Shown here: positions 6,936-23,953 of the stretch, piece by piece | Position numbering within the stretch: position 1 is the stretch's first letter | Layout of the letters: every line of letters begins with the position of its first letter | Source: an uncultured Celeribacter sp. | Lineage (GTDB): Bacteria; Pseudomonadota; Alphaproteobacteria; Rhodobacterales; Rhodobacteraceae | Direction: 5' to 3' | Assembly: GCA_963676755.2 (NCBI GenBank) | Contig: OY781536.2 | Location: 261,640 to 325,639 of the forward strand | Length of the DNA: 64,000 bases | Translations under genes and position numbers: made by a program | The notes under the pieces: generated by a model | Told to the model about the DNA's origin: nothing | The model's database searches: none | What the model saw: the letters and a program-made list of their open reading frames with translations, nothing else

Positions 6936-6939
6936 TCCA

Positions 6940-9051: not shown

Positions 9052-10715
9052 GCAAGATCGATCCAATTCGCCTCGAAGTCATGAAGAATGCTTTTGACGC
9101 AATCGCAGATGAGATGGCGCTCATGTTGATGCGTGCTGCATATTCTCCGATCGTTCGGGACAGTATGGACTACTCCACAGCAATCTGTGATGCGCAAGGC
9201 CAGACACTTGCGCAGGGGGTAACGACCCCGATGCATCTGGGAAGTTTCTATGACGCGATGCAGCATCTGATGACGCGTTACGAGGGTGAGATCCATCCGG
9301 GAGACGTTTTTATCGGCAATGACCCTTACGCCGCCGCCGGACAGCATTTGCCCGATATTTATATTGTAGAGCCGATCTTCTTTGAGGGTCGTCTTGTGGC
9401 GTGGACCACGACTCTCGCACACCACGCCGACGTTGGCGGTATTGTGCCCGGATCGAACGCTTTGGGTGCGGTTGAAATCTATCAGGAAGGTCTCCGGCTC
9501 CCGTTCTTGAAGCTTTACAATCAAGGCGAAATGAATGCTGCGATCTGGGAGATCCTCGCGCTGAATGTGCGTGTGCCGGAGATGGTGCAGGGTGATCTTC
9601 GGGCGCAAATGGCGGCTAGCAAGGCTGGCCGGAAGTCCTTTGACGAACTGGTTGCCCGCTATGGCATTGATGAAGTGCTCGCCTGCGCAGAAGAGCTGCA
9701 TGATTACGCTGAGCGCCTTGGGCGCGCCGAAATTCGTGATCTGCCAAATGGGGAATACCATTTCACAGATCATATTGACGGACTGGGGGAGACACCTGAA
9801 CCGATTGTAATTCAAATCGCGCTCACCATTCACGACGATACAATCTCTGTCGATTTCGCCGGCTCTTCGCCGCAGGTTAAGGGAGGTGTCAATACGCCGC
9901 TGCCGTTCACAAAGGCATCGGTCTACACAGCCCTGCGGTCGATTATGCTTTCGGACATTCCGAACTGCCACGGGTTTGAGCGTGTTGTAACCGTCACAGC
10001 GCCCAAGGGAACAGTTGTCAATTCTGTTCATCCGGCTCCCTGCGGTGCGCGGGGGATTACGGGCTACAGAGTCATCGACGGCATGTTCGGCGCATTGGCT
10101 CAGGTCGTGCCTGACAGGGTCACGGCTGATGGTATGGGCGGGTCAACCGTGCCGACCTTTGCCGGCTGGCACGACGGTCAGGCCTTTGTCTTTACAGAAA
10201 CCGTCATGGGAACCTGGGGCGCAAGTTCTGCGCATGACGGGCAGGTTGGTGTGCCGCATATGGGGGCCAATCAGGCCAATGTTCCCATCGAGATGATCGA
10301 GGCATCCTATCCATTACGCGTCAAACGCTACGGGATTGTGCCCGATACGGGAGGAAGCGGACGCTATCGCGGTGGGAATGCATTCATACGGGAATACGAG
10401 TACCTTGGTGAGGAAGAGGGGCTGATGTCTCTGCGATCCGATAAACGCGATTTTCTGCCGCATGGTCTGGAGGGAGGATCCGAGGGAACAGGTCCAGTCA
10501 ATCTTCTGATACAAGATGGCAAAGAGGCCCAGTTGCCAGTTCTCGTGACAGAGCCCTATGCCTTGAAGAAGGGCGATGTTTTCCGTCACATTTCGCCCTC
10601 CGGCGGCGGATTTGGACCTGCCTCTGAAAGGTCTCTAGCAGAGGTGATGGCTGATGTTGAGGCGGGTTTGATTTCTGCGGAAACAGCCATGCGCGACTAT
10701 GGTTTGCCGGTTTGA
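9048..10715 (+). CDS. Hydantoinase B/oxoprolinase family subunit (HyuB-like), copy 2
   Basis: MSKIDPIRLEVMKNAFDAIADEM and NDPYAAAGQHLPD motifs; 555 aa. Its ATG overlaps the preceding stop (ATGA). Confidence 0.9.
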   Translation: MSKIDPIRLEVMKNAFDAIADEMALMLMRAAYSPIVRDSMDYSTAICDAQGQTLAQGVTTPMHLGSFYDAMQHLMTRYEGEIHPGDVFIGNDPYAAAGQHLPDIYIVEPIFFEGRLVAWTTTLAHHADVGGIVPGSNALGAVEIYQEGLRLPFLKLYNQGEMNAAIWEILALNVRVPEMVQGDLRAQMAASKAGRKSFDELVARYGIDEVLACAEELHDYAERLGRAEIRDLPNGEYHFTDHIDGLGETPEPIVIQIALTIHDDTISVDFAGSSPQVKGGVNTPLPFTKASVYTALRSIMLSDIPNCHGFERVVTVTAPKGTVVNSVHPAPCGARGITGYRVIDGMFGALAQVVPDRVTADGMGGSTVPTFAGWHDGQAFVFTETVMGTWGASSAHDGQVGVPHMGANQANVPIEMIEASYPLRVKRYGIVPDTGGSGRYRGGNAFIREYEYLGEEEGLMSLRSDKRDFLPHGLEGGSEGTGPVNLLIQDGKEAQLPVLVTEPYALKKGDVFRHISPSGGGFGPASERSLAEVMADVEAGLISAETAMRDYGLPV

Positions 10716-10724
10716 CCGGCAAAC
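10702..10724 (+). terminator. Hairpin GTTTGCCGG-TTTGA-CCGGCAAAC spanning the hyuB2 stop codon
   Basis: 9-bp perfect stem with the TGA stop inside the loop. No T-tract follows, so it is only a weak intrinsic-terminator candidate. Confidence 0.25.
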
Positions 10725-11333
10725 TGAAGCTGGTCGGTGGGATTGATCACAATGAAACGTATCGGCTTTACCGGTGACCTATAGATTCGACTATTTTACA
10801 ATCGTTGTCATTTGTCCTTAAATCGAAATTTATGTTTCCGCATATCGCTGCCTTCCACGCGACGTTCACTACTCCAACGATTTTAGTGGCGGAAACGGAT
10901 ATGCATCGGAACATGATTATTGCCGCAATTTCTGCGCACGGTGTGAGGCCATTTTGGCCCGACGGGCTGGAGGTCGGTCCGGTTTATCTGCGTGAAGATA
11001 TACAGCCTGTTTTGCGCGCGCTTTTGGGCAGATCGTGATACGGTAGGGGGGAGGCTACGCGGATATCTGAAAACAAACAATGAAATCAAATATTTACTAT
11101 TTATCAGGAGGTTTTGCACAAAGCCGTTGACAGGGGGTGTGCATGAAAGCCGCCAATTCGTGCAAACTTATGCCTAATTGGCAGCGAAGCAACCCTTTTA
11201 GAAACGGGATCGTCGAGCAAGAGTAGAAGGGAGCCCGAAAACTGTTCCAGCAGGGATTAGTTCAAAAACCCGACTTTTGTCGTAAAGACGTAATTCCCAT
11301 GTCTGACGACAATTGGTACAACTACACGAAAAA

Positions 11334-11411
11334 TGGCGAGCCGTGGAGGACTCGAACCCCCGACCTGAGAATTAGAAGTTCCCTGCTCTAATCCAGCTGA
11401 GCTAACGGCCC
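11334..11411 (-). tRNA. tRNA-Arg (anticodon UCU)
   Basis: The reverse complement folds as a cloverleaf. Acceptor stem is GGGCCGT/ACGGCTC, D-arm is GCTC..GAGC, and the anticodon stem GGGAA/TTCTC carries loop CTTCTAA. The anticodon TCT lies at 11376-11374. The T-arm is GGGGG-TTCGAGT-CCTCC, the discriminator is G, and CCA is encoded. Confidence 0.9.
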
Positions 11412-11569
11412 GCACTTGTGGTGGCTGTATCTGTCAAATTCCCTATCCTTGTCAACTTCGTAGTCTTTCGCGATGCAGGCTTCGTGAATTTTCTTTTGAT
11501 AATGGGTGTTGCATAGCCTCTTAACGCGGGGAGGCCATGCAATTCGCTGACTACTTCTGCCGTTGGCGG

Positions 11570-12706
11570 TCAGTCCTGACACAGGCAGGGGCAGGAAAAG
11601 AGGGTTCCGTGCCATGCGCCAAGGGCTGTGCGAGTTCCGACGATGAGCCAGATGACTGCAAGAATTCCGATCAGGACATCGGACAGCCCTCCGATCAATG
11701 CGAGATTCAGGTCAGTGCCAAGTTTGACCGTGGCAACCGAGAAGACGCCGAGCGGGAATGTATAGCCCCACCAGCCGAGGTTGAAGGGCAGGCCTTCACG
11801 CAGATAACGCAGAGTAATGAGTGCGGCCATGGAGAGCCACCACAGGCCGTAGCCCCACAGGAGCAGCCCGCCGATCAAGCCGACACCGGTAAAGGTCGCA
11901 CTATATTGCTCCAGTCCTTGCGCACAAAGAATATCCGGAGCGGCATCGCCCAAGGTCATCAGCCCGAGTGCGCCGGTGCCGATGGGGCCGAGTGCCAGCC
12001 AACTGGTCGCCGCCATCGAGGCATGGGGGAGTTTGTGCAGGACAAGCCGGAGCAGGAGTATGACAATCACGCCCATGGCAATCGGCACGGACAACGCCCA
12101 GAGCACATAGGACAGGACCATGACCATCATTTGCATCTGCGGCGCAACAAGATGCGGGGCCAGCAATCCACCGGAGACGGCGGCGACCTCTGCGGCCACC
12201 ATCGGCAGGAGCCAGACGGCAGTCATCTGTTCTACGCTATGACCCTGTCGGGTGAACATCAGGTAGGGGACTGTAATGCCGCAAAGGACAGACAGGCCGA
12301 CGTCAATCCACCAAAGCACCTCTGCAATGCGGACCGCTGTCTCTCCGAGGTGAGCGGTCCCATAGATGAGAAATCCGTTTAGAACCGTGGCAAGCCCCAT
12401 CGGGATGCAGCCGAAGAACATGGAGACAACAGGGTGATTGAACACGCGCATGGCTTCATCAAAGAAAAAGACCCAGCGGGCGATGAGCAGCACGCTGAAC
12501 AGGGTGAAGAGGGCAATGTTGAACAGCCACAAGACCTCACCAAGAGCAAAGAGAGGCGTCTTGGAAAGCGCAATGGAGAGGATGCCCGTGCCCATTGTGG
12601 CGGCAAACCAGTTCGGGGTGAATTGCCGGATCACTTCACGGGGGTGTTGAAGTTGATTGAGAGGGCGACGCGAGTAGACGGCGGTGCGCGTGTTTTGAAA
12701 GGTCAT
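11570..12706 (-). CDS. TDT-family transporter (TehA / Mae1 / sulfite-exporter-like, C4-dicarboxylate or anion channel type)
   Basis: 378 aa with about 10 TM segments. The N-terminal FTPNWFAATMGTGILSIAL is characteristic of the tellurite-resistance/dicarboxylate transporter family. A LysR regulator gene lies divergently. Confidence 0.75.
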   Translation of the reverse strand: MTFQNTRTAVYSRRPLNQLQHPREVIRQFTPNWFAATMGTGILSIALSKTPLFALGEVLWLFNIALFTLFSVLLIARWVFFFDEAMRVFNHPVVSMFFGCIPMGLATVLNGFLIYGTAHLGETAVRIAEVLWWIDVGLSVLCGITVPYLMFTRQGHSVEQMTAVWLLPMVAAEVAAVSGGLLAPHLVAPQMQMMVMVLSYVLWALSVPIAMGVIVILLLRLVLHKLPHASMAATSWLALGPIGTGALGLMTLGDAAPDILCAQGLEQYSATFTGVGLIGGLLLWGYGLWWLSMAALITLRYLREGLPFNLGWWGYTFPLGVFSVATVKLGTDLNLALIGGLSDVLIGILAVIWLIVGTRTALGAWHGTLFSCPCLCQD

Positions 12707-12740
12707 GATGAATCTCCTTGAGGAGGAGATAGCGAAGCTT

Positions 12741-12752
12741 GATTGATCAATC
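12741..12752. promoter_or_regulatory. Perfect 12-bp palindrome GATTGATCAATC, candidate LysR-type binding site
   Basis: It lies in the 116-bp divergent intergenic region between the TDT transporter and the LysR gene. The TGATCAAT core recurs at 12775-12782, 31 bp downstream, which fits a recognition-plus-activation site layout. Confidence 0.35.
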
Positions 12753-12822
12753 TAACGGATTTAAGTTGTCATTATGATCAATATTTTCGATTAATTGGCA
12801 AGGTTTGTAGGCAAGGCAAAGC

Positions 12823-13662
12823 ATGACCCTCGAACAGCTTCGTATTTTCATGGCCGTCGCTGAACGGGAACATATGACCGACGCGGCGCGGGCGCTGAAC
12901 CTAACCCAGTCGGCCACCAGTGCCGCCATCGCCGCGCTGGAAGAGCGTCATGATGTGCGCTTGTTCGACCGTGTCGGGCGCGGTATCGCCTTGACCGCAC
13001 TGGGGCGCGACTTTCTGCCGGAGGCGCGGGCCGTGGTGGCACGGGCCGAGGATGCTGTCGCCTTTCTCGCGGCCTCGGCGGGGTTACAGCGCGGGCAGGT
13101 GCGGCTTGTCGCCAGCCAGACCGTCGCCAACTATTGGCTGCCCCCGCTCATGCAGGGCTTTCACGAAGATTATCCCGGCATCGAGCTGCATTTGAAGATC
13201 ATGAACACCCATGATGCAGGGCAGGCCATCACCGAAGGCGCTGCCGATCTGGGCTTTGTCGAGGACGAGGTCAGCTCGCCCGCCTTTACTCTCTTGTCTG
13301 CGGCAGATGACCAGCTTGTGGTGGTGTCCGCCACGCCGGTCACGGATCTGGCCGCCGCTAAATGGGTGATGCGCGAGCGCGGGTCGGGCACGCGGGCGGT
13401 GCTCGAACAGGCCTTGGACAGGGTCGGTATTGTGCCGGATGTACGGATGGAACTGCCATCCAACGAAGCTGTGCGCGCTGCGGTCACTGCAGGTAGCGGC
13501 GTATCCGCCTTGTCACGACTTGTTGTGGAAGCCCCGCTCGCGGCGGGGCAGTTGGTGGAGATTGATGTCTCGATTCCGCCGCGCCGCTTCTATGCCCTGC
13601 GGCCCGACCAGCGCCATGTCAGCCGCGCGGCGCAGGCATTTCTGGATTATGTGCTGAAATAG
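12823..13662 (+). CDS. LysR-family transcriptional regulator
   Basis: The N-terminal HTH is MTLEQLRIFMAVAEREHMTDAARALNLTQSATSAAIAALEERH. Length is 279 aa with a C-terminal substrate-binding-type domain. Confidence 0.9.
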   Translation: MTLEQLRIFMAVAEREHMTDAARALNLTQSATSAAIAALEERHDVRLFDRVGRGIALTALGRDFLPEARAVVARAEDAVAFLAASAGLQRGQVRLVASQTVANYWLPPLMQGFHEDYPGIELHLKIMNTHDAGQAITEGAADLGFVEDEVSSPAFTLLSAADDQLVVVSATPVTDLAAAKWVMRERGSGTRAVLEQALDRVGIVPDVRMELPSNEAVRAAVTAGSGVSALSRLVVEAPLAAGQLVEIDVSIPPRRFYALRPDQRHVSRAAQAFLDYVLK

Positions 13663-14005
13663 GCATCAAATCCCTGCATCTGTGGAAAAGGGTTTCGCGA
13701 GAAACAGAGACGCAAATTGCGGGAAGCGTCACGCAACATGTTGATGTGGCGGTCTTTCACTATCAATCGGAGTCTCAAAGTCTTCGCAAAATGCGTCAAT
13801 CCTTCGTTGCCTCAAAGAGTTTCTCTCGCTAAGGTTGAATTGACCGTGCGTAAATCTCATAGCAAGTGAATCAATTGCGCGGGTGTGAACTGGTTACACG
13901 TCTCCGCCGGAAGTATCGGCGCTCTGGCCAGTCGTTCAGCAGACTTGAAACCTTAGCCCTTTGTTTTGTCGCCTCCCCCGAACCCCAGCCAAACGGAACC
14001 GAGTA

Positions 14006-14371
14006 ATGAGTGACCCGATGGAAGACCTGCCCTACGAAGACCGTATCGCACATATTCGGCTGCGGTTTGTGGACAGTCTGGGCGAACGGTTCGAGGAAAT
14101 CCGGGCCGCGCTCAAATCCGGACCGGACGAGAACTCGCGTGACAGTCATGTGCGCACGATCCACCGCCTGTTTCATGACATGGCCGGAAGTGCCGCGATG
14201 CTGGAGATCGAGGTGCTGGAAAGTGCCGTGCGTCCGGCGGTGCATATCGCGGAGCGGGTCGACGCGGCGCAAAGCGAGCTGACTGATGACGAGAAACACG
14301 AATTAGACGCGATCATTGAGCAAGCTCAAGCTGTCGCCGTTCAATTGAGAGAGCAATTTAGACCGACATGA
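14006..14371 (+). CDS. Hpt-like histidine phosphotransfer protein (about 121 aa)
   Basis: Small and predicted all-helical. TIHRLFHDMAGSAAMLEIEVL resembles the Hpt H-x-x-K-G-x-A motif, with Lys replaced by Met. I chose the ATG at 14006 (MSDPMEDLP); the ORF-track start is 13961. The stop overlaps the next gene start (ATGA at 14368-14371). Confidence 0.5.
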   Translation: MSDPMEDLPYEDRIAHIRLRFVDSLGERFEEIRAALKSGPDENSRDSHVRTIHRLFHDMAGSAAMLEIEVLESAVRPAVHIAERVDAAQSELTDDEKHELDAIIEQAQAVAVQLREQFRPT

Positions 14372-16329
14372 AACACGTCCTTTTCGCAACCGTCTCGCTC
14401 TGTATTCTGGCCTTGGGTGCACAGGCGCAAACGACTGCCACGCCCCAAAATGAAGGCGCCGCCGCGGCTGCGCCCTTACGCATGGGAAACACCCTGATCC
14501 GCAATATGTCTTTGCGGGATTTGGGATTTCGTGATGGCATTTCCTTCAGCCGCCTGTCTGGCGAAGCGACGGTCTATTTCCCCGTGCTTGAAGAAGCGCC
14601 GCTGCGCGACGGTTTCTTGAGCCTTGATTTCGAACACGGAGCCACCAACGGGGTGGAGCGGTTCTTGCAAGTCCGGATAGGCGACCGCATCGCCGCCTCG
14701 GTCGGCTTGCCGGAGGAAGGCGGTCGGCTTTCCCTGCCTGTTTCGATCCGGCCTGATGATTTGCGCGGCGGTTTCGTGCCTGTGACCCTGACCTATTCCG
14801 GCGGTTTCTCCGAGTTTGTTTGCATTGACGAGCGGGCCTCTGGGGATTTCATCCAGATTTCACCGGACTCGGCGCTGTCCCTGACGCTTGCCTCGGACGA
14901 GATCGACACGCCTTGGGAATTCAACGGGCTGCGTCCGTCGCAGGTCTACGTTCAGATGCCTCAAAGCGACCAGATCGCGAGTTTGGCCGCGGCTGTGCGT
15001 GCGGCAACCCTGTTCGGAGCAGAGCAAGGCGGCGTGCGTTTCGGGACGGAGCCTGTCGACACAAGCGGCTATGTCTGGGAGACCGGCGCGATTGCTTTGG
15101 ATGTGACAACGTCCGGCACGGCCAGCGAGATGGAAGTCGTGGAGCAGGGCGGAAAACCCGTTCTGCATCTGCGCGGCACCGATCCCCAGATCGGGCTGTG
15201 GCAACTCTCCTCCGATTGGGCGGAAGTGGCGGATGCGGCTTCGAGTGTGACGGGTGCCATCTCTGACGGTGCCTTTGATGCGGAGGCTTTGGCGCTGACA
15301 GATTTGGACGCGGATTTGCAAGCGCGGCTCGTGTCGACATCGACACAGTTCCAAGTTCCGTTCCAGTCCACCGATCTTCCGGTCGGGAAAACCGTGTCCG
15401 AAGTTGACCTGATCCTCGCGGCGGGGCTTGATCCCTTTGGTGCAGGTGCGACGGTGTCTGTCTATCTCAATGACAGCCTGCTCGGTTCGCGCCCCTTGGC
15501 AAAGGGGGAGCCGGAACGTGTGAAACTCTCTGTGCCTTCGGGTGTTGTCGGGCGAGATAATCTGCTGCGTATTCTGGTGCAGCGACAGGTTTCTACGACC
15601 GGATGCGGAGGGAAAGCCCCATCCTATCCCGCGCAGGTCTTGCCGGGCAGCAAGCTGATCCTTTCCGAGGCGACTGGCGGGGCCGACCAGTTCTATCAGC
15701 TGCGTCAGGAGTTCGAGAGCGGCGCACAGATTTTTGTCGATCCCGACATGGGGCTGTCGCATAGCGATGTGCTGCCGTGGCTCGGTAATGTGGCGGGCAC
15801 AATGGTTCCTGACCAAGCGACGATCATCCCCCGCAATGCCCTGACGGACATTGAGGCAGGCACGCCCTTTATCATCCTGTCCGACACCAACCCTGGCGAG
15901 GGCGATCCGCTGATCACGGTTGACGGGGGCCGGATCGAAATCCGCGACCGTGCGGGTACTGTGATGTTCGACGGAGACGATTTGGACCGCCTTGGCATTG
16001 TGCAGATCGTGACGCGCAACGGGGCGCATGGCCTTTGGGTCCGTCCGGGGAGCGGCCCTGCGCCAGCGAGCTCTGCGCTGACGCCCTTTGTGCTGGATCG
16101 CGGAGATGTGGCCTTGATCGCGGAGGACGGCGTGATTGTTGCGACCTCTACGCGCGGCAGCTCTCTGATTGACGTGGTCTATCCTGATCGCACCAGTCTG
16201 AAGCAGATTCTCGACCAGTATCGTCCGTGGATTGTGGGCGGGTTGTGGCTGGCCTTGACCCTGATCGTTTTGGCCGCGTTCCAGAGAATTTACCGCCGTC
16301 GCCAGTCTTCCTCTTCAACGGATACATAG
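14368..16329 (+). CDS. BcsB-like periplasmic protein (cellulose-synthase regulatory subunit family) with signal peptide and C-terminal TM anchor
   Basis: Signal peptide MKHVLFATVSLCILALGAQAQ. Two internally similar halves each show a BcsB-type pattern: SLRDLGF..ISF..GEATVYFPV...GFLSLDFEH...FLQVRIGDRIAASVGLP and VSEVDLILAAG...ATVSVYLNDSLLGSRPL. The C-terminal anchor is WIVGGLWLALTLIVLAAFQRIYRRRQ. A GT2 synthase gene follows directly. Confidence 0.55.
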   Translation: MKHVLFATVSLCILALGAQAQTTATPQNEGAAAAAPLRMGNTLIRNMSLRDLGFRDGISFSRLSGEATVYFPVLEEAPLRDGFLSLDFEHGATNGVERFLQVRIGDRIAASVGLPEEGGRLSLPVSIRPDDLRGGFVPVTLTYSGGFSEFVCIDERASGDFIQISPDSALSLTLASDEIDTPWEFNGLRPSQVYVQMPQSDQIASLAAAVRAATLFGAEQGGVRFGTEPVDTSGYVWETGAIALDVTTSGTASEMEVVEQGGKPVLHLRGTDPQIGLWQLSSDWAEVADAASSVTGAISDGAFDAEALALTDLDADLQARLVSTSTQFQVPFQSTDLPVGKTVSEVDLILAAGLDPFGAGATVSVYLNDSLLGSRPLAKGEPERVKLSVPSGVVGRDNLLRILVQRQVSTTGCGGKAPSYPAQVLPGSKLILSEATGGADQFYQLRQEFESGAQIFVDPDMGLSHSDVLPWLGNVAGTMVPDQATIIPRNALTDIEAGTPFIILSDTNPGEGDPLITVDGGRIEIRDRAGTVMFDGDDLDRLGIVQIVTRNGAHGLWVRPGSGPAPASSALTPFVLDRGDVALIAEDGVIVATSTRGSSLIDVVYPDRTSLKQILDQYRPWIVGGLWLALTLIVLAAFQRIYRRRQSSSSTDT

Positions 16330-16335
16330 ACCAAG

Positions 16336-18225
16336 ATGCCGCTTGATGCCGAAAGCGAAGCGATTGGCACATTGTTGCTGGATCGGGGGATTCTGTCTCC
16401 CGATCAGCTTTTGGCGGCAGAGGAGCATGCCAGTGACTGGGGGGTGTCCTTGGTCAAGGTACTCTTGTCGCGCCGCTGGATCACCTCGGATCAACTCTAC
16501 GAACAACTGTCCTATCACTATGATTTGCCGCTGGTCGATCTCATGGAGAACCGGCCTGATGACGCGCTGATCCGCAAATATGATCCGCGGATGATGAATG
16601 ACCGGATGACCGTTCCAATCGGGGAGAGTGATGGCGTTCTGACCATAGCCACGGCGCGTCCGGGACCGGCCACCTTGCTCTATGTGCGTCAGACCTACGG
16701 ACCGAAAGTGCGCATGGTGATCGCCTCACACTTCGATCTGTCGTGGTCGCTGCAACGCGCATTCCGCGAGCAGCATTCCCATGAGGCGGTGTTCGCCTTG
16801 GCCGAGATTGACCCCGAGATGTCCGCCCAACAGGTCATCACGCCGCCGCAGATTCTGGTGCTCTATCTGCTGCTTTCGATCTTCCTGCTGGGGATTGCTT
16901 TTGCTCCGGTCCCGACCTTGATCGTGCTCAATGTGTTTCTGACGGTGTTTTACACGGGGAATTTCCTGTTCAAGGCCGTGCTTGTCTGGGTCGGCGGGGC
17001 GGCGCAAGAGTCCTCGTCCCGCGCGATTGCGGCGGAGGCGGGTCTGTTGCGTGATGAGGATTTGCCTACTTATACAGTTCTTGTCCCGATGTTCCGCGAA
17101 CCCGAAGTGTTACCGATCCTGACGCAAGCTCTGCGCAATCTGGACTATCCTTTGGCCAAGCTGGACATCAAGATTGTCCTTGAAGAAGGCGATCACGAGA
17201 CCATTGAGGCGGCGCGGAGCCTGAACCTCGAAGGCGTCTTTGAAATCATCCGCGTGCCCGCCTCGCATCCGCAGACCAAACCCAAGGCCTGCAATTTCGC
17301 GCTGCGTTATTCGCAGGGGGATTTTCTGGTCATTTTCGATGCCGAGGATAAGCCTGAGCCGGACCAGTTGAAAAAGGTCGTCGCGGCCTTCAACCAGTCG
17401 CCTGACAACACCGCCTGCATCCAGTGTCGCCTGAACTACTACAACGCGCGCGAGAACTGGCTGACGCGGATGTTTACGCTGGATTATTCCCTGTGGTTCG
17501 ATCTCATGCTGCCGGGGTTGGAACGGTTGAAAGTGCCGATCCCTTTGGGGGGCACGTCGAACCATTTCCGCATGGATGTGCTGCGCGAGTTGAATGCGTG
17601 GGACCCGTTCAATGTGACCGAAGACGCGGATTTGGGTATTCGCCTGACGCAAAAGGGTTACCGCGTGGGGGTGATCGATTCCACCACCTTCGAGGAGGCC
17701 AATGTCTCCATCCCCAACTGGATCCGCCAGAGGTCGCGCTGGATCAAAGGCTATATGCAGACCTTTCTGGTCCATAGCCGTCGCCCCATCCATCTGTGGC
17801 GCTCGATTGGTCCGTCGGGGGTGTTCGGCTTTGTCTTCTTTATCGGCGGCACCTTTTTGTCCGGACTGCTCAATCCGGTGTTCTGGGCAGTTTTCGCGCT
17901 TTGGATGATCTTTGGCGAAGATATCATCTCGCCCTACTTCCCCTTGCCTGTGCTTTACCTGTCCATGCTGAACCTTCTGGCGGGCAATGCTTTGTTGATC
18001 TACCTGACGATGGTGGCGCCGTTCCGACGACGCTGGACCTATCTGGCGCCATGGGGGGTGACGGTCATCGGCTATTGGGTGCTGATGACCATTGCCTCTT
18101 ACAAGGCGCTGTCGCAACTGGCGTTCAATCCTTTCTACTGGGAAAAGACCGAACACGGTCTGTCCAAACACACCGCCAATGAAGTGGCCGAAGCCAGTGC
18201 TGATGCCGAGGAGGTCAAGGGATGA
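16336..18225 (+). CDS. Processive family-2 glycosyltransferase (BcsA/COG1215-like synthase) with N-terminal T2SSE_N/MshEN-like domain and no PilZ
   Basis: N-terminal residues 10-69 match the tandem GspE/MshE N-domain repeats ending LPLVDL. Two TM segments follow. GT-A motifs are present: YTVLVPMFREPEV, FDAEDKPEPD (DxD), VTEDADLG (TED) and QRSRWIKGY (QxxRW). A C-terminal TM bundle follows. The C-terminal tail is only about 30 aa and has no RxxxR/DxSxxG PilZ motifs. Confidence 0.8.
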   Translation: MPLDAESEAIGTLLLDRGILSPDQLLAAEEHASDWGVSLVKVLLSRRWITSDQLYEQLSYHYDLPLVDLMENRPDDALIRKYDPRMMNDRMTVPIGESDGVLTIATARPGPATLLYVRQTYGPKVRMVIASHFDLSWSLQRAFREQHSHEAVFALAEIDPEMSAQQVITPPQILVLYLLLSIFLLGIAFAPVPTLIVLNVFLTVFYTGNFLFKAVLVWVGGAAQESSSRAIAAEAGLLRDEDLPTYTVLVPMFREPEVLPILTQALRNLDYPLAKLDIKIVLEEGDHETIEAARSLNLEGVFEIIRVPASHPQTKPKACNFALRYSQGDFLVIFDAEDKPEPDQLKKVVAAFNQSPDNTACIQCRLNYYNARENWLTRMFTLDYSLWFDLMLPGLERLKVPIPLGGTSNHFRMDVLRELNAWDPFNVTEDADLGIRLTQKGYRVGVIDSTTFEEANVSIPNWIRQRSRWIKGYMQTFLVHSRRPIHLWRSIGPSGVFGFVFFIGGTFLSGLLNPVFWAVFALWMIFGEDIISPYFPLPVLYLSMLNLLAGNALLIYLTMVAPFRRRWTYLAPWGVTVIGYWVLMTIASYKALSQLAFNPFYWEKTEHGLSKHTANEVAEASADAEEVKG

Positions 18226-19631
18226 TGCGTATCTCGGGGCGTCTGGCAGGGTTTGTCATGCTGTTTCTTGGACTTTTGCTGAGCCTCGCATGGGCACAGG
18301 CGCACGGGTTCATCTCCGCGCGGGTTGTGATGCTGTGGTCTAAGGCAATCATGCAGGTGGACGGGCCGGCCAGTTTCAATTCGACGGATGCGTTCTTTCC
18401 GCCTTTGCCTTTTATCCTCTCGATTGCCCTGCAATGGATCACCGGAGGGACCACCGTCCCGATTCCCTTCCTTCTGTCCGCGGGTCTTGGCGCGTGGCTC
18501 TTGGTGATGTGGTATGACAATCTGCGCACAAATGGCGGGATTTCGGTTCTCACCTGTTGTCTCGCGCTGACTCTGCTTGCGCTCAATCCGTTTTTCCTGC
18601 GTGTGCTGGCAGAGGGGCCGGAGGCGGTTCTTACCCTGATAGGCACATGGATTTTCGCACGCGGAATCGTCAACCTGCGGCTGACCGGCAATGCGCCCGA
18701 CATGATGAAAGTCGCCGTTGGCCTGTTGATCGTGTCTCTGTCCAACAGCTACGGCTTGCTGATCGGTCTTGGCGCCTTGCCCTTCATGGTCATCGCCGCC
18801 CGCCCCAGCATGTTGGTTGCCTCACCAATCGGTTATCTCTTTGCGATGTTCTACCCTGTGGTGGCGGCGATCCTGTCTATGGCTTTTATCAGCAGCGTCT
18901 TTGACAGTGCGCTGGTGCCCTTGCTGACCGAAGAACCTGTGCCGATCTCGTTGCAAAGCCATCTGGTGATCCTCGCAGGTCTTGTGCCGGTGACCCTCGT
19001 TGCCGCTCTGCGCAGCCTTTTCACGCCGCATTATGTCATGCCGCTGGTAGCGGCCTTCGGTGCGACTTTTGGCGCTTACCTGCTTAACAGCGTGTGGCAT
19101 GTGGAATCCGACCCGACGCTGGCCCTTGCGCCGATGCTTGCAGTGTTGGTTGTCGCCATCCGCTTCTGGCCCGCGCTTGCGCTGCGCGAACCGATTGTCG
19201 TGGCCCTTCTGGCGCTTGGGCTGGTGCTCGGGGTGTTTTCCTTGCGCGCCAATCCGGTGGTCGAGACCCGCAACTGGGTGGCCGCGATGCAAGGGGACAT
19301 CATCGGGGATCACGCAGCAACCCGTGATCTCGTCGCCTTTCTCGAAGATAAAGACGGTATCATGGTTGATGTGGAACGAAACCCGGAGATCGTGCCGCAA
19401 ATTGATGATATACAAAGGCTCATAGTCTCCGGCCAAACGATTTACGATTGGGCGTTGGAGGGGGGGCGATTGCAAGCCCGCTATGTTCTGGTGCCGACTA
19501 TGCAGGGCGGCACGATCGAAGAAGACCGCATTTTGCGCCGGTTCCCGGAACTCAAGAACGGTCGGTTAGCATTTTATGAAGAGGTTTTCATGAATGACCG
19601 GTGGCGGGTTTTTAGGAGGATTGAATCGTGA
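18222..19631 (+). CDS. Polytopic inner-membrane protein (about 11 TM plus a ~120-aa C-terminal soluble domain), GT-C (ArnT/PMT)-like architecture, function unknown
   Basis: 469 aa with about eleven hydrophobic segments. Acidic residues occur in the first extracytoplasmic loop (QVDGPASFNSTDAFFPPLP). The ATGA overlap with the synthase stop supports a real, co-translated gene. The family assignment rests on architecture only. Confidence 0.6.
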   Translation: MMRISGRLAGFVMLFLGLLLSLAWAQAHGFISARVVMLWSKAIMQVDGPASFNSTDAFFPPLPFILSIALQWITGGTTVPIPFLLSAGLGAWLLVMWYDNLRTNGGISVLTCCLALTLLALNPFFLRVLAEGPEAVLTLIGTWIFARGIVNLRLTGNAPDMMKVAVGLLIVSLSNSYGLLIGLGALPFMVIAARPSMLVASPIGYLFAMFYPVVAAILSMAFISSVFDSALVPLLTEEPVPISLQSHLVILAGLVPVTLVAALRSLFTPHYVMPLVAAFGATFGAYLLNSVWHVESDPTLALAPMLAVLVVAIRFWPALALREPIVVALLALGLVLGVFSLRANPVVETRNWVAAMQGDIIGDHAATRDLVAFLEDKDGIMVDVERNPEIVPQIDDIQRLIVSGQTIYDWALEGGRLQARYVLVPTMQGGTIEEDRILRRFPELKNGRLAFYEEVFMNDRWRVFRRIES

Positions 19632-19641
19632 GGGGACGTAA

Positions 19642-20598
19642 ATGAGCCAACGCATTATGGCAGTCGATGATTCCGATATTGCTCAGGAGTTTATTCGTAG
19701 CAATCTGGCCGAACTGGGGTTCGACAATGTTGTCAGCTTTATGGACCCGCGTGTGGCGCTTGAGGCGATCGAGAGCGGAGAGGCCGAGGCCGATCTGATC
19801 CTGATGGATATCATGATGCCGGAGATCGACGGGATCGAGCTTTGCGCGCGGATCAGGGTAATTGACGCATGGCGCGATATTCCGATCATCATGCTGACCA
19901 GTCGCAAGGACATGGAGGCCCTGTCCAGTGCCTTTATGGCCGGTGCGAATGACTATGTGACCAAGCCGTTCGACCGGATCGAGTTGCAAGCACGGATGCG
20001 TAGTTGTCTACGTCTCAAGTCCGAACTGGACCGCCGCCGTGCCATCGAACATCGCGGCAAAAGACGCGCTGGGCAGGGGGCTGCAAGCGGGCCGCAGTCG
20101 GAGGTCTCACATGTGATGCTTGGCAGTCAGGCGGGGCTGCAAGCGGATTTCAGGGCCATGTCGCCGGAGGCCCAGTCGGCTTTGGGGTTGGTGGTTCTGA
20201 AGATCGACAGCCTGTGCGAAAAGCGCGCTTTGACTGACTTCCAAAAGGCGGAGATCATTCAGGCCACGGCTAAGGCTCTGGCCGATGTGCCGATGACTGC
20301 CGGAGAAAACTTCGTGCATTGGGAGGAGGGCCTGTTCTGTTTTGCAAGCCCATGCGCATCCGAAGACGATTTGCGGGCGAGGGCAGAGGCTTTCATCAAA
20401 GCTGTTCAATCCGCCAAGATCACCACGCCGAACACTTGGGAAAAGACGCCCGTGTCCATCAGCGCGGTTCTAGCGCCGAAACAAAACGGCACGATTGGTC
20501 ATCGCCTTGGAAAAGCCATTCAATTGGTAGAGAACATATGTGAGACGGGCCAGCTTCAGACCATAACTGTCCTGCCAACCCAACGGAATGACGCCTGA
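19642..20598 (+). CDS. Response regulator: REC domain fused to a degenerate GGDEF-like domain
   Basis: REC motifs are MAVDDSD, DLILMDIMMPEIDG and NDYVTKPF. The C-terminal half is collinear with GGDEF domains: LVVLKIDSL aligns with LLIDIDFF, VSISAVLAP with VTISIGVSA, and LGKAIQLVENICETG with LKRADEGVYQAKASG. The signature is HWEEGLF instead of GGDEF/GGEEF, and no RxxD I-site lies 5 residues upstream. Confidence 0.7.
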   Translation: MSQRIMAVDDSDIAQEFIRSNLAELGFDNVVSFMDPRVALEAIESGEAEADLILMDIMMPEIDGIELCARIRVIDAWRDIPIIMLTSRKDMEALSSAFMAGANDYVTKPFDRIELQARMRSCLRLKSELDRRRAIEHRGKRRAGQGAASGPQSEVSHVMLGSQAGLQADFRAMSPEAQSALGLVVLKIDSLCEKRALTDFQKAEIIQATAKALADVPMTAGENFVHWEEGLFCFASPCASEDDLRARAEAFIKAVQSAKITTPNTWEKTPVSISAVLAPKQNGTIGHRLGKAIQLVENICETGQLQTITVLPTQRNDA

Positions 20599-20601
20599 CC
20601 C

Positions 20602-22581
20602 ATGAGCCATATGTTCAACAAACCCTACGCGGCGCAAAGCCAATCGGAAAACGGTCGTGTGTTTATCGCCTTGGTCTTGTCCCTTGTGCTGGTGTTCGTT
20701 GCGGGGATCACCCTGTTGGTGCGCTCCGATTACAAACGCACGGTCAATGAATCCGAAGACCAGCTTGCCTATATCGCAGAGCTGCTTGAGCAATCGGTGG
20801 AGTCCACGCTGGCTGTCGCCAATTTGCATATGTGGGGCATGATTGACCAAATCGCCTTGACGGAACTCGGGACCACGGAAGAGATCGAGAGCCGCTATGG
20901 TGATTTGTTGCGCAAGACCGTGGAGGACATCGACCAGATCAACAGCGTTGTCCTGATCGCCACCGACGGAAATGTGATCTGGGCGTCGGTGGATAACCTC
21001 AGCGGACGGTATCTTGGAGACCGTCAGTATTTTCGGGAAGCTTTACGTCTGGGCGAGGGGGAATATGCCGTCGGCGTGCCTTTGATCGCGCGAGGAAGCG
21101 GGCAGCGTGTGACGCCGATTGCATGGCCGGTGGCTTCACCCTACGGGCGGGTGCTTGGCGTGATCGTTTCATCCTTGGGAGAGGAATATTTCTCGGACCT
21201 GCTGACCTTGACCGAGTTTCCATCTGATCTGCATGTTGACATTCAGGCCTCGAACGGGGCCGCAGCATTCCATTCCAACGAAGCCCCGCGTGCGATCGGC
21301 TCGACCATCATCAGCGCCACCAGAGAGATTGCCTCTCTCGGGTTGACGATTGATGTCAGCCGCAGCAAACACTCGGTCATGGCGGCCTTCTATGTGCGGA
21401 CCGCCGGTTTCATCGCTGTCGCGATCATTCTGTTTGCCACAGCAATCGGCATGGCCATCCGCCTGAAGGCGAAGTCTGTTCAACTTGCGACCGGATTGCA
21501 TCGTTCGAAAGAGGACAACTATCGCATTGTCGCGGCGCAACGCGAATTCAACACGATTTTCGACAATGTCGGAGACGGAATCGTTATCTTTTCCGAAGAC
21601 GGAACCCTGAACCGCACCAACAAAATGGCCCGCGAAATTTTGGGAACAGAGGGCAGCGAAGCGGCTGTCGCTCGGTTGCGCACGCTTCTGCCGGAGTTTT
21701 CGGATATCAACAGTGATTTCGAGGTGCATCGGATCAAAACCGACGAGACACAGCCAGAACAGGCGGTGCAATGTCGGGTGATGAAGCTGACAACCGGCGA
21801 TCAGGAAATTGCCTATTGCGTGCTCACCGATGTCACCGCCGAAGAACGGCTCGCAGCGGCGCGCACCAATTTCATCACATCCATCAACCACGAATTGCGC
21901 ACACCTCTGACCTCGCTTGCCGGGGCCTTGGAGCTTCTGGAAAACAGATATGCCGAAAGCCTGCCCGCACCTGCGAGGCGCTTGTTGGCGATGGGGTCGC
22001 GCAATGCGGACCGGTTGCTCTTGCTGGTGAACGACATCCTGACGTTGCAGGCGATTGATCAGGGGAAATTCCATGTGGATGCCGAACCTGTTCCGGTGGA
22101 GACGGCTTTGGAAGAGGCCATTTCGACCAATTCCGGTTATGGCGTGGCCACAGGCGTGAAACTACAGCGCAGTGCTTCTGTCACCGGCGATGTGTTTGTT
22201 GATCCGGACCGGTTGCAGCAGATTTTCTCGAACCTCATCTCGAACGCGATCAAATATTCCCGACCCGAGGGGATCGTCGAGATCGGCGCGCAAGAGGCGG
22301 GCGACGAGGTAACATTTTATGTTCGCGATACGGGGCCGGGCATCCCCAAAGCCGCCCGCCATCGCCTCTACGAACGTTTTACCACGCCGCTGCACGGGCG
22401 CGGAGTGCAGATGAGCGGCACGGGTCTTGGCCTTGCGATCACCAAGCAGTTGGTCGAGCGACAGGACGGCCAGATCACCTTTGAAACGCGCACGGAGGAA
22501 GACGGGCAAAAGGACACGGGCACCGTCTTTTATGTCACGTTCAAACGCCCCGCAGCGCCCGCAATGGAGAAAACCGCATGA
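20602..22581 (+). CDS. Sensor histidine kinase (TM, periplasmic Cache-like domain, TM, PAS, HisKA, HATPase_c)
   Basis: Two TM segments flank a ~230-aa domain carrying the Cache-type GDRQYFREA motif. PAS motif: FNTIFDNVGDGIVIFSEDG. H-box: SINHELRTPLTSL. N, G1 and G2 boxes: SNLISNAIKYS, VRDTGPGIP, GTGLGLAI. There is no receiver domain. Confidence 0.9.
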   Translation: MSHMFNKPYAAQSQSENGRVFIALVLSLVLVFVAGITLLVRSDYKRTVNESEDQLAYIAELLEQSVESTLAVANLHMWGMIDQIALTELGTTEEIESRYGDLLRKTVEDIDQINSVVLIATDGNVIWASVDNLSGRYLGDRQYFREALRLGEGEYAVGVPLIARGSGQRVTPIAWPVASPYGRVLGVIVSSLGEEYFSDLLTLTEFPSDLHVDIQASNGAAAFHSNEAPRAIGSTIISATREIASLGLTIDVSRSKHSVMAAFYVRTAGFIAVAIILFATAIGMAIRLKAKSVQLATGLHRSKEDNYRIVAAQREFNTIFDNVGDGIVIFSEDGTLNRTNKMAREILGTEGSEAAVARLRTLLPEFSDINSDFEVHRIKTDETQPEQAVQCRVMKLTTGDQEIAYCVLTDVTAEERLAAARTNFITSINHELRTPLTSLAGALELLENRYAESLPAPARRLLAMGSRNADRLLLLVNDILTLQAIDQGKFHVDAEPVPVETALEEAISTNSGYGVATGVKLQRSASVTGDVFVDPDRLQQIFSNLISNAIKYSRPEGIVEIGAQEAGDEVTFYVRDTGPGIPKAARHRLYERFTTPLHGRGVQMSGTGLGLAITKQLVERQDGQITFETRTEEDGQKDTGTVFYVTFKRPAAPAMEKTA

Positions 22582-22946
22582 AAGTTCTGTTTGTCGATGA
22601 CGAGGCCGATATCCGCGAGATGATCGAAATTGCCTTGATGGTCGAAGAGGATATTGACGCAACCTTCGCGTCCGGCGGCGCCGAGGCCATTGAAATCCTG
22701 AAGTCGGAAACCTTCGATGCAATCCTTCTTGATGTGATGATGCTGCCGCCGGATGGTGAAGAGGTCCTTCGCACCGCACGCAGCCTTCCCGCGCACAAAA
22801 CCACGAAGATCGTCATGTGCACGGCCAAAACCTCGCAAGAGACGGAACAGGAGCTCAAGGCAATGGGGGCGGACCGTGTTCTGCACAAACCCTTCAAACC
22901 CGTGAAACTGGCAGGCTATCTGCGACAGATTTTAGGGACGCAATAG
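22578..22946 (+). CDS. Stand-alone receiver (CheY-like single-domain response regulator)
   Basis: 122 aa with MKVLFVDDE, AILLDVMM and HKPFKP motifs. Its ATG overlaps the kinase stop (ATGA). Confidence 0.9.
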   Translation: MKVLFVDDEADIREMIEIALMVEEDIDATFASGGAEAIEILKSETFDAILLDVMMLPPDGEEVLRTARSLPAHKTTKIVMCTAKTSQETEQELKAMGADRVLHKPFKPVKLAGYLRQILGTQ

Positions 22947-23223
22947 GACCGCCACCCCGTGGGTTTGACGCGACATTTGAACATTCTCTGCCTGTGACGC
23001 ACGAGGGCACTTCACTTCCTTGTTATCTTACCGTCACCCGTGAGAAGCGATGTCTCATCCTGTCCTAACACCTTGGCAATGCAACAGAATACCATAGATT
23101 TCCTCCTCTGCGTCTCCCTGTCTGGAACGGGCGCAAGGGCGCGACCTTCAGGAATGCGCTTTGCCATGCCTCTCTCCCGTGAGGAGCCGGACTTGGTAAA
23201 ATGTGATATGCCATCTATATCAA

Positions 23224-23249
23224 GCCGACTTTGCGTTCGGCAATTTTTT
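23224..23249 (+). terminator. Hairpin GCCGA-N8-TCGGC followed by a T6 tract; competing hairpin CGGCAA-TTTT-TTGCCG (23238-23253)
   Basis: 5-bp GC-rich stem followed by AATTTTTTG. It lies 280 nt after the REC gene and 75 nt before the next CDS. The second hairpin shares the CGGC nucleotides, so the two structures are mutually exclusive. Confidence 0.3.
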
Positions 23250-23326
23250 GCCGAGAAGAAAATCTGCGGTGCTGTATCCGGGCATTATGTGTCCGAGACA
23301 GCGGGCTTGGGCAAACCCTTGTGTGA

Positions 23327-23953
23327 TTGGAGACGGGTATGATTGATGCGGCCATTCAGCCATTGCAACGGCGCCTGCTGACCCCGATGGGGCAGTGGCT
23401 GGTTGCGCGTGGGGTTCAGGCGGACCTCATCACGCTTGCGGGATTTGCCCTCGGCCTTTTGGCGATTCCGGCGCTGGCGTTCGGTGCCTATGGTCTGGCT
23501 TTGGCTCTGCTTTTGGTGAACCGACTGGCGGACGGGCTGGACGGCACGGTTGCGCGCCTGTCAGAGCCGACCGACCGTGGCGCATTTCTGGATATCGCGC
23601 TCGATTTTGTGTTCTACGCGCTGTTCCCCTTGGGCTTTGCCCTCGCGGACCCGATGCAGAACGCCTTGCCCGCAGCCGTTCTGATCGCCGCTTTCGTGGG
23701 CACAGGATCGTCTTTTCTGGCTTTCGCCGCCATCGCCGCCAAGCGCGGGGAAATGGCAACGGAGTTCCCGACCAAAGGCATCTACTATCTGGGCGGCCTG
23801 ACTGAAGGGTTCGAGACCATCGCGGTGTTTGTTGTGATGTGTCTTTTCCCGCAGGGCTTTGCGCTTCTGGCCTACGGTTACGCCGCGGCATGTGCCTTGA
23901 CCACCGTCCTGCGCTGGCACCAAGGTTGGCAAGCCTTTGCATCACGGAAATAA
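23327..23953 (+). CDS. CDP-alcohol phosphatidyltransferase family membrane protein (YnjF-like)
   Basis: The family signature D-x2-DG-x2-AR-x8-G-x3-D-x3-D is visible in DGLDGTVARLSEPTDRGAFLDIALD. Length is 208 aa and the protein is polytopic. Confidence 0.8.
   Translation: METGMIDAAIQPLQRRLLTPMGQWLVARGVQADLITLAGFALGLLAIPALAFGAYGLALALLLVNRLADGLDGTVARLSEPTDRGAFLDIALDFVFYALFPLGFALADPMQNALPAAVLIAAFVGTGSSFLAFAAIAAKRGEMATEFPTKGIYYLGGLTEGFETIAVFVVMCLFPQGFALLAYGYAAACALTTVLRWHQGWQAFASRK

Follow-up and report, generated by a model that had tools for sequence, protein, structure and literature searches.

In Xanthomonas, the xag operon is needed for the production of a biofilm polysaccharide, which xag mutants lose (PMC3609779). 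The mannanase ManA disperses both aggregates and biofilm of Xanthomonas; the nature of the Xag polymer “remains to be established” (PMC8042644). A comparable gene set, “BcsB-like + xagB + xagC + xagD”, is the candidate stalk cluster of iron oxidisers (PMC4643136). The sfz1-4 genes encode in turn a BcsB-like protein with a signal peptide and a C-terminal transmembrane (TM) segment (Sfz1), a T2SSE_N+GT2 protein (Sfz2), a protein with no assigned function (Sfz3) and a hydrolase (Sfz4) (10.1101/2021.03.12.435129). In the E. coli synthase NfrB, the GT2 glycosyltransferase is gated by an MshEN domain (PMC8669469), which is an established high-affinity receptor of cyclic di-GMP (c-di-GMP) (PMC5013675). 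NfrB and all the synthase-dependent systems listed in an initial annotation of the DNA considered here (Bcs, Pga, Alg, Pel and Bgs) are switched by c-di-GMP. Here we describe a seven-gene locus in a 64-kb stretch of the genome of an uncultured Celeribacter sp. (contig OY781536.2, positions 261,640 to 325,639; this whole stretch is hereafter called the window). On balance, we lean towards reading it as an Xag/Sfz-type synthase-dependent exopolysaccharide module in which control by a phosphorelay replaces c-di-GMP gating.

The features of the locus, in window coordinates, are the following.

13663..14005, + strand: upstream intergenic region between a LysR-family gene and gene 1, presumed promoter region
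14006..14371, + strand: gene 1, stand-alone Hpt phosphotransfer protein of 121 aa (PF01627)
14368..16329, + strand: gene 2, periplasmic BcsB-like protein of 653 aa, equivalent to Sfz1/Sfb1 (PF03170)
16336..16815, + strand: N-terminal MshEN domain of gene 3, aa 1-160, with a decayed c-di-GMP motif (PF05157)
16816..18225, + strand: membrane-embedded processive GT2 synthase part of gene 3, XagB-type (Pfam, motifs, AlphaFold2 (AF2)/Foldseek)
18222..19631, + strand: gene 4, XagC/Sfz3-type polytopic membrane protein of 469 aa with a predicted GT-C fold (AF2/Foldseek, iterative profile)
19642..20598, + strand: gene 5 (RX), response regulator with REC and degenerate GGDEF domains (Pfam for REC, family profile)
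20602..22581, + strand: gene 6, sensor histidine kinase without a receiver domain (Pfam)
22578..22946, + strand: gene 7, single-domain receiver of 122 aa (PF00072)
23224..23251, + strand: terminator-like hairpin and T-run, a weak candidate for the operon end, 278 nt past the last stop codon (terminator scan)

The seven open reading frames (ORFs) span 14006-22946 on the + strand, the longest ORF listed for gene 1 beginning at 13961. Their packing is exactly as initially annotated: 4-nt ATGA overlaps occur at 14368-14371 (legible directly in the nucleotide sequence), 18222-18225 and 22578-22581, and the remaining junctions are gaps of 6, 10 and 3 nt. A single transcript for the seven genes is likely from this arrangement. 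The operon is bounded upstream by a 343-nt gap behind a LysR-family gene (12823-13662, Pfam) on the same strand and downstream by a gap of 393 nt, followed by a gene for a CDP-alcohol phosphatidyltransferase. A promoter and terminator scan of the region gave sites no more numerous than in shuffled sequence, and a search for a sigma-70-like site in 13663..14005 found none.

The initial annotation had called for a survey of gene neighbourhoods, and in five other Rhodobacterales loci the seven genes are indeed conserved together in the same order: two in Sulfitobacter (L001 and L007; loci are numbered with an L throughout), L087, Pseudooceanicola batsensis L088 and Palleronia pelagia L089. The flanks of these five loci are wholly unlike one another and include a peptide ABC transporter, rhamnose genes, a TRAP transporter and transposases. 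Since the gene order is kept while the flanks differ completely, the module travels as a unit, and the seven-gene arrangement is no chance run of ORFs. The nearest database proteins come from Celeribacter halophilus, with 98 % identity for the glycosyltransferase (GT) and 96 % for gene 4.

Genes 2-4 constitute the core of the described but biochemically uncharacterised Xag/Sfz family, in which genetic evidence for a matrix polysaccharide comes from Xanthomonas alone. Close homologues of gene 3 bear the JGI label “glycosyltransferase XagB”, and over residues 3-616 the protein is 52-53 % identical to those encoded in loci of Xanthomonas cucurbitae and Xanthomonas sp. To place it among its relatives, one genome per species was scanned with an alignment of diverse homologues, which gave at least 600 matching stretches, 599 of them encoding a relative; the best 80 were kept, and neighbours across loci were mapped with phmmer and jackhmmer. 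The hosts of these best 80 loci are Proteobacteria, Bacteroidota, Actinomycetota, Chloroflexota, Bacillota, Cyanobacteria, Aquificota and others. An exhaustive profile search with the synthase returned 2,662 clusters (at the 50 % identity level) at E <= 1e-30, distributed over many phyla. According to an iterative profile, a member of the gene 4 family stands directly behind the GT gene in about 70 of 86 loci (Xanthomonas L014 at 4e-40 and L016 at 8e-44 among them) and is a near-universal partner of the GT. The GT gene is preceded by a BcsB-like gene in over 40 loci, which represent several phyla. In Xanthomonas the locus reads small outer-membrane barrel, GT, polytopic membrane protein and GH113 (PF22612 at 7.9e-32), an order that matches the four-gene xagABCD operon; in gammaproteobacterial metagenome-assembled genomes (MAGs) it reads BcsB-like, GT, membrane protein and GH113.

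Of the five gene types that make up Xag/Sfz gene content, three are found in the Celeribacter locus (XagB, XagC and the BcsB-like gene) and two, XagA and XagD, are absent. Neither an XagA-type barrel, nor a GH113 of the XagD type, nor the GDP-mannose pyrophosphorylase/isomerase ManC was found in the 64-kb window by tblastn or family hidden Markov models (HMMs). The initial annotation was right that no PilZ, active GGDEF or EAL, hydrolase or outer-membrane porin is encoded there (Pfam, tblastn and HMM), but the conclusion that this type of system lacks a porin and a hydrolase does not hold: Xag/Sfz relatives carry the XagA barrel and the GH113 enzyme XagD, which are missing from this locus. Among the relatives, XagA-type barrels (22 ORFs) are confined to diderms.

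Behind the operon, three of the related loci have an eighth gene (L001 16669-17382, L007 16663-17376 and L088 15901-16539), which encodes an outer-membrane-barrel-like protein of 212-237 aa. The barrels of Sulfitobacter and Pseudooceanicola share 52 % identity and weakly match the XagA family HMM (E 5.5e-06 and 2.9e-04). The corresponding position of the window, 22947-23339, is non-coding over its 393 nt and shows no barrel remnant.

The domains initially assigned to the seven proteins are also recovered by Pfam (Hpt, BcsB, MshEN plus GT2, REC twice, and HisKA/HATPase/PAS_8) and, for the degenerate GGDEF, by a family profile. In gene 3, the MshEN domain (PF05157 at 2.1e-12) precedes matches to the GT2 families PF13632, PF13641 and PF00535. 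The motifs DAED (335-338), TED (428-430) and QRSRW (465-469) are invariant among 33 diverse homologues. The best Foldseek matches of its AF2 model (pLDDT 84) in the PDB are BcsA of E. coli and Rhodobacter and the hyaluronan synthases of vertebrates and Chlorella virus, then chitin synthases (E 5e-14 to 1e-8). Judged by its motifs and modelled fold, gene 3 is a processive membrane GT2 synthase of the BcsA, HAS, CHS and NodC type. Gene 2 has an N-terminal signal peptide, a BcsB domain (PF03170, 36.3 bits vs. a cut-off of 21, E 2.9e-09) and a C-terminal TM anchor; the profile of its BcsB-like family (A4) finds solved BcsB among PDB sequences at E 4.5e-08 across about 345 positions.

Pfam gives no family for gene 4. 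All of the top 18 Foldseek matches of its AF2 model (pLDDT 85.4) in the PDB are GT-C enzymes, i.e., STT3/PglB, DPY19, AftA/AftD, ALG12 and ArnT, with TM-scores of 0.43-0.53 on the query. UniRef labels on some homologues (“RgtA/B/C/D-like”, “Dol-P-Man mannosyltransferase”) agree with this fold. GT-C glycosyltransferases are recognised by their fold together with an acidic residue in the first extracytoplasmic loop; in gene 4, two residues, D47 and D56, are majority consensus among 37 homologues and lie in what is presumed to be this loop. Gene 4 is identified from its model as a GT-C fold protein equivalent to XagC, and this predicted fold suggests that it transfers from a polyprenyl-phosphate sugar at the periplasmic face, for example in chain branching or modification.

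The regulatory part of the argument starts from the MshEN domain. Its c-di-GMP-binding motif consists of two tandem 24-residue copies of RLGxx(L/V/I)(L/V/I)xxG(L/V/I)(L/V/I)xxxxLxxxLxxQ (PMC5013675). The domain of gene 3 aligns in exact register with that of VcMshE (5htl), residues 1-110 to 1-110, and of the eight critical residues (R9, G11, G18, Q32, R38, G40, G47 and Q61) keeps only two, G11 and G18, the others being changed (R9A, Q32A, R38S, G40V, G47R and Q61H). The NCBIfam c-di-GMP_motif model scores 28 bits on gene 3, below its cut-off of 38. Domain and fold are present, and the binding motif, as read from these residues, is decayed. This is a feature of its whole clade: among close homologues (>= 62 % identity), 113 of 117 score at most three of the eight, while 71 of 106 distant representatives score at least five, and the family consensus is canonical. 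Xanthomonas scores 5/8. A tryptophan in the MshEN spacer, W35, was considered as a marker specific for RX-bearing loci and rejected, being present also in RX-less gammaproteobacterial and other proteins. The initial annotation had excluded a c-di-GMP gate from domain content, which overlooked the receptor role of MshEN; since MshEN is a c-di-GMP receptor domain, such a gate cannot be denied on the absence of other domains. With two of eight critical residues left, the conclusion itself is probably right, by this other route.

The gene downstream of the Xag/Sfz core encodes RX, a protein that looks like a diguanylate cyclase and lacks its active site. The REC domain (aa 5-119, E 1.9e-26) has invariant acceptor residues D9, D10, D56 and K108. 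In the following degenerate GGDEF domain (aa ~150-318), which Pfam does not detect in the single gene 5 sequence, the GG[DE]EF site reads HWEEGLF. A profile of nine RX sequences can be aligned over its whole length with PleD, WspR and DgcR; the site is degenerate in all nine proteins, and no RxxD I-site is conserved among them. Fold-level homology to PleD and WspR is thus real, and gene 5, by its sequence, is no active diguanylate cyclase. Reception of c-di-GMP by RX is not supported either, because no I-site is conserved.

The remaining genes provide a complete phosphorelay, as the initial annotation had proposed: all relay domains and acceptor residues of a His-Asp-His-Asp pathway are present. 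The Hpt protein (gene 1; PF01627, 29.5 bits vs. a cut-off of 24.6, E 8.9e-07) has its putative phospho-histidine, H57, in HDMAGSAAML, and orthologues lie immediately upstream of the BcsB-like gene in L001, L005, L007, L011, L012, L088 and L089. The kinase (gene 6) consists of a TM segment, a periplasmic dCache domain, a second TM segment, PAS, HisKA (H-box SINHELRTPL) and HATPase; HisKA, HATPase and PAS_8 are called by Pfam, and dCache_1 falls just below its cut-off (41.1 vs. 45) and is called in the L088 and L089 orthologues. The gene of the stand-alone receiver (gene 7; PF00072 at 1.3e-20) shares 4 nt (ATGA) with the kinase gene and is kept behind the histidine kinase in L001, L007 and L087-L089. 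The phosphorelay residues (H-box, receiver DD/D/T/K, Hpt histidine and terminal receiver) are all present.

Moreover, RX and the Hpt domain go together: all 10 distinct RX loci have an adjacent Hpt domain. It stands alone in Rhodobacterales, Amorphus, L011 and L012, is fused as PAS-HisKA-HATPase-REC-Hpt in L003 and L008, and as Hpt-REC-GGDEF in L006 and L009. The order of phosphotransfer may be read from the fused unorthodox kinases: since these run histidine kinase, REC and Hpt, the relay would go H1-D1-H2 and then to D2, i.e., RX. The Rhodobacterales version distributes this relay over separate proteins: kinase (gene 6), receiver (gene 7) and Hpt (gene 1). A “Rosetta stone” is provided by P0137, in which REC, two MshEN domains and GT2 are joined so that a receiver is fused straight onto the synthase. 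Pfam and NCBIfam models revealed no DNA-binding domain among the seven proteins, and control is therefore probably post-translational.

In a neighbour-joining tree of the GT catalytic region, gammaproteobacterial and Xanthomonas sequences make up the sister branch of a single clade that holds the RX-bearing loci. The basal members of this RX clade (Azospirillaceae and Nitrospirillum) keep 6/8 MshEN residues and lie beside an intact Hpt-REC-GGEEF protein, whereas the other members keep 2-3/8. The simplest history suggested by this distribution is that RX was gained once and that the c-di-GMP site decayed afterwards. A homologue search with the C-terminal domain of RX alone gave a single match and is uninformative on distribution. 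Across loci, same-strand two-component genes lie within 5 kb in 23 of 36 loci with a decayed MshEN vs. 5 of 42 others (Fisher p 3e-6, uncorrected for phylogeny). Apart from two singletons, the positives belong essentially to two large clades (Alphaproteobacteria and Bacteroidota), so that the number of independent events is small.

The bacteroidotal clade, in Mucilaginibacter and Chitinophagaceae, has a conserved cluster of its own that consists of histidine kinase, BcsB-like gene, GT and XagC-like gene, with an MshEN of 2/8 (L024, L027-L032, L045, L050, L051, L059, L061 and L079; in L028 at 5200-13419). In L028 and in Mucilaginibacter, a divergent GH5 gene precedes these four. From these sequences, it looks as if the c-di-GMP site was lost here, in clusters that include a kinase gene, independently of the alphaproteobacterial event.

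What the synthase makes can be approached through the hydrolases of related clusters. GH113 genes occur in the cluster in Xanthomonas, gammaproteobacterial MAGs, Sphingomonas, Azospirillaceae and Nitrospirillum; besides those of Xanthomonas, the loci with a GH113 include L003, L006, L009, L012, L013 and L015. In L003, L006, L009 and L012, where GH113 is in or beside the cluster, the GT is 60-62 % identical to gene 3. GH113 is mannan-specific, and its genes adjoin GT2 genes; two characterised Xanthomonas members (AAM39996.1 and AJZ27962.1), which may be XagD itself, are secreted endo-beta-1,4-mannanases with their highest activity on glucomannan (PMC9032380). The gene for ManC adjoins the cluster in L006 and L009 as well as in L040 and L069 of Bacillota, and in P0150 a complete phosphoglucomutase/phosphomannomutase is joined to the MshEN-GT2 protein. 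On the model of BcsZ in Bcs systems, a hydrolase encoded within the cluster points to beta-1,4-mannan or glucomannan, which, to judge from the relatives, is the most likely product. A link to the Rhizobium glucomannan synthase GmsA was rejected; GmsA is a UppE orthologue and belongs to a different enzyme class (10.1101/085225).

These elements can be combined in the following scheme. Gene 3 would polymerise a beta-linked glycan and move the chain across the inner membrane, where the periplasmic, membrane-anchored gene 2 protein would receive and guide it; gene 4, working at the periplasmic face, would most likely modify or branch the chain from a polyprenyl-phosphate sugar. The dCache-PAS kinase (H1) may sense an extracytoplasmic ligand and hand the phosphate to the single-domain receiver of gene 7 (D1), from which it would pass to the Hpt protein of gene 1 (H2) and end on the REC domain of gene 5 (D2). 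The dead GGDEF domain of gene 5 would then turn the synthase on or off through a protein contact, plausibly via MshEN. What the comparisons above show directly is the identity of the domains, the folds, the state of the motifs, synteny and co-occurrence; the order of phosphotransfer, the contact between RX and the synthase, independence from c-di-GMP and the identity of the polymer are what we infer from them. The most specific version of this scheme is offered as a tentative possibility: a synthase of probable beta-mannan would be gated by phosphorylation and not by c-di-GMP, and the REC-pseudoGGDEF protein, presumably a former local cyclase, would be a phospho-switch that docks on the decayed MshEN.

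Several points weigh against a phosphorelay-gated mannan synthase. The contact between RX and MshEN is pure inference, and the RX-bearing clade is known from sequence alone. The kinase could also phosphorylate both receivers in a branched scheme. Decay and RX do not always coincide, L010 having a decayed MshEN and no RX, and several actinobacterial clades are decayed without two-component neighbours. The GT tree has no support values, and the 80 loci were selected as the best among at least 600 matches and not at random. Because the 64-kb window has no GH113, ManC or barrel, product and export route are extrapolated for the Celeribacter locus; the mannan and the route are borrowed from systems whose GTs are only 60-62 % identical. 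Lastly, to judge from its sequence, the degenerate MshEN could still bind c-di-GMP.

This last point leads to the alternative that the module is still controlled by c-di-GMP, bound either by the degenerate MshEN or by the GGDEF domain of RX acting as a PelD/PopA-like receptor, the relay merely tuning this input. We consider it rather unlikely. The ancestral family has canonical MshEN motifs, the basal RX-clade members with 6/8 residues adjoin a real Hpt-REC-GGEEF cyclase, and gene 3 itself retains 15 of 22 motif positions, mostly hydrophobic ones, together with G11 and G18. In addition, single substitutions in the MshEN of NfrB reduce function only partly, and more than one was needed to abolish it (PMC8669469). 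However, R9 and Q32, which are important in VcMshE, are both Ala in gene 3, the glycines of the helix turns, G40 and G47, have become Val and Arg, and Q61 is His, a pattern that resembles the non-binding XpsE case (PMC5013675). The c-di-GMP motif score stays ten bits short of its threshold, RX has no conserved RxxD I-site to act as a receptor, and tblastn and HMM searches of the window turned up neither a GGDEF nor an EAL gene.

Two further alternatives concern the enzyme itself. That the locus is a divergent Bcs cellulose system, with a BcsA/BcsB pair making beta-1,4-glucan under unusual regulation, is improbable. It would account for the BcsB homology of gene 2, for BcsA being among the best structural matches of the GT and for partial matches to CelA models, but the scores on the latter are far from the cut-offs (TIGR03030 CelA, 56 bits vs. 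699; NF008558, 41 vs. 992), and genes for PilZ, BcsZ (GH8) and BcsC (TPR-porin) were not found in the window; membership of the synthase in Bcs was rejected on these BcsA-equivalog scores and missing components. Moreover, what the relatives carry is a GH113 mannanase and ManC, not a GH8 cellulase; the GT-C partner is foreign to the Bcs systems known to us; and the Ferriphaselus iron oxidisers have a xag-like cluster plus separate bcsA, bcsB, bcsZ and bcsC homologues (PMC4643136). A non-processive reading, in which the GT2 makes a polyprenyl-phosphate sugar and gene 4 transfers it to an envelope acceptor (like GtrB/GtrC, CsbB/YfhO or ArnC/ArnT), fits the almost universal pairing of GT2 and GT-C genes, the clear GT-C fold of gene 4 and the membrane mannosyltransferase PcManGT at rank 21 of the GT fold matches. 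Nevertheless, it appears more improbable still: the top 20 fold matches are BcsA and hyaluronan synthases, the invariant QRSRW and TED motifs are hallmarks of processive beta-glycan synthases, and a biofilm polysaccharide is lost in xag mutants (PMC3609779). The BcsB-like partner, together with the barrel and endo-hydrolase of relatives, implies a secreted polymer.

How, then, does the locus, read as a relay-controlled Xag/Sfz module, differ from its described counterparts? With Xanthomonas xagABCD (Tao et al. 2010; PMC3609779; PMC8042644) it shares a GT2 of the XagB type with an N-terminal MshEN, an XagC-type gene directly downstream and the synthase-dependent logic. In Xanthomonas, however, the XagA barrel and the GH113 enzyme XagD are present and no BcsB-like gene lies beside the GT, the opposite of the Celeribacter locus; its MshEN is near-canonical at 5/8, compared with 2/8 in gene 3; and the operon, whose described regulation is so far transcriptional (DSF/RpfG/Clp), contains no Hpt, RX, histidine kinase or REC gene. 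The candidate sfz-sfb/xag-like stalk clusters of iron-oxidising Zeta- and Betaproteobacteria, matched by description, open with three genes equivalent in type and order to genes 2-4. They continue into a glycoside hydrolase (Sfz4/XagD-like), and a phosphorelay is absent from them; their regulation by c-di-GMP is a proposal, and their function a putative one.

The E. coli NfrB-NfrA-YbcH system resembles the locus in the fusion of GT2 to MshEN and sets a precedent for local action of a dedicated signalling protein, DgcJ, on a synthase (PMC8669469; PMC8669472). NfrB uses UDP-ManNAc as its substrate and is partnered by the TPR barrel NfrA and by YbcH; its MshEN is C-terminal and binds c-di-GMP. 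Membership of gene 3 in NfrB was rejected: NF008411 gives 34.9 bits vs. 1170, over the MshEN part only, the domain order is reversed, and NfrA and YbcH are missing. With BcsA-BcsB, the likeness lies in the catalytic and channel fold and in a periplasmic BcsB-type partner with a C-terminal anchor; the Celeribacter locus differs in having no PilZ, BcsZ or BcsC, another regulatory domain, an additional GT-C partner and mannan-linked relatives. Gene 5 is alignable over its full length with PleD (REC2-GGDEF), WspR and DgcR, and its GGDEF is catalytically dead as in PelD and PopA. It is set apart from PleD, WspR, PelD and PopA in having no conserved RxxD I-site, in being fed by an Hpt and in being encoded inside the synthase operon.

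The initial annotation had called the combination undescribed. For genes 2-4 this has to be withdrawn, as they are the published Xag/Sfz set; it stands for the coupling of a relay and a REC-pseudoGGDEF protein to a synthase with decayed MshEN, which was not found in the searchable literature. A lineage with a decayed receptor site, a complete phosphorelay and a dead cyclase in one operon is a testable case of gate rewiring; if true, it would be a documented replacement of a second-messenger gate by direct protein signalling. For the family as a whole, the comparison adds a predicted GT-C fold for XagC, a consistent pointer to beta-mannan or glucomannan and a map of its very wide distribution. 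The module is also a candidate attachment and biofilm determinant in marine Rhodobacterales.

Other arrangements of the same domains are found among the relatives of the synthase. Many of them (P0126, P0132, P0133 and P0158) have 3-6 tandem MshEN domains before GT2 and lengths of about 800-1320 aa. The relatives of about 1300 aa had been considered as BcsB-GT fusions, which was rejected on the Pfam result of 3-6 tandem MshEN ahead of GT2. To our knowledge, this tandem architecture (3-6 copies) is without a literature precedent. In Parvibaculaceae and another Hyphomicrobiales genome, a REC protein of 175-198 aa is encoded 18-80 nt behind the GT and replaces the XagC-type gene (L047 11881-12459, L072 11869-12447, L068 2165-2692 and L081 7388-7984); MshEN is near-canonical (5-7/8) in L047, L068 and L072 and scores 1/8 in L081.

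In Roseobacter denitrificans OCh114, the glycosyltransferase RD1_1962, an “NfrB homologue”, is the most frequent target of phage-resistance mutations, and a gene annotated xagB shows raised expression, together with more biofilm, in mutants of the CtrA phosphorelay (PMC13392355). RD1_1962 and this xagB are no more than possible orthologues of gene 3; R. denitrificans does not appear among the named entries in the top 120 matches of gene 3.

As to the neighbours of the operon, L001 (17401-18345, opposite strand) and L006 (688-1587) likewise have a LysR gene close to the cluster, and the LysR neighbour in the window could be either a transcriptional regulator of the operon or a coincidence. The CDP-alcohol phosphatidyltransferase-family gene (23340-23953, PF01066 at 9.4e-08) is on the same strand as the operon. 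It is probably unrelated to it, since no homologue was called at the matching position in L001, L088 and L089. Upstream, a hydantoinase/oxoprolinase B gene (9048-10715, Pfam), overlapped over 4 nt by the end of an ORF of 703 aa (6940-9051), and a gene for a SLAC1/TehA-type anion channel (11570-12706, Pfam) are all on the - strand; the hydantoinase/oxoprolinase B and channel genes are ordinary neighbours unrelated to the operon. In L001/L002, from JGI metagenome contigs, the BcsB-like gene is broken into two ORFs of 321 and 309 aa (8051-9016 and 9065-9994), which could reflect a frameshift, a pseudogene or an assembly error; in the near-identical locus L007 of Sulfitobacter dubius the gene is whole and encodes 647 aa.

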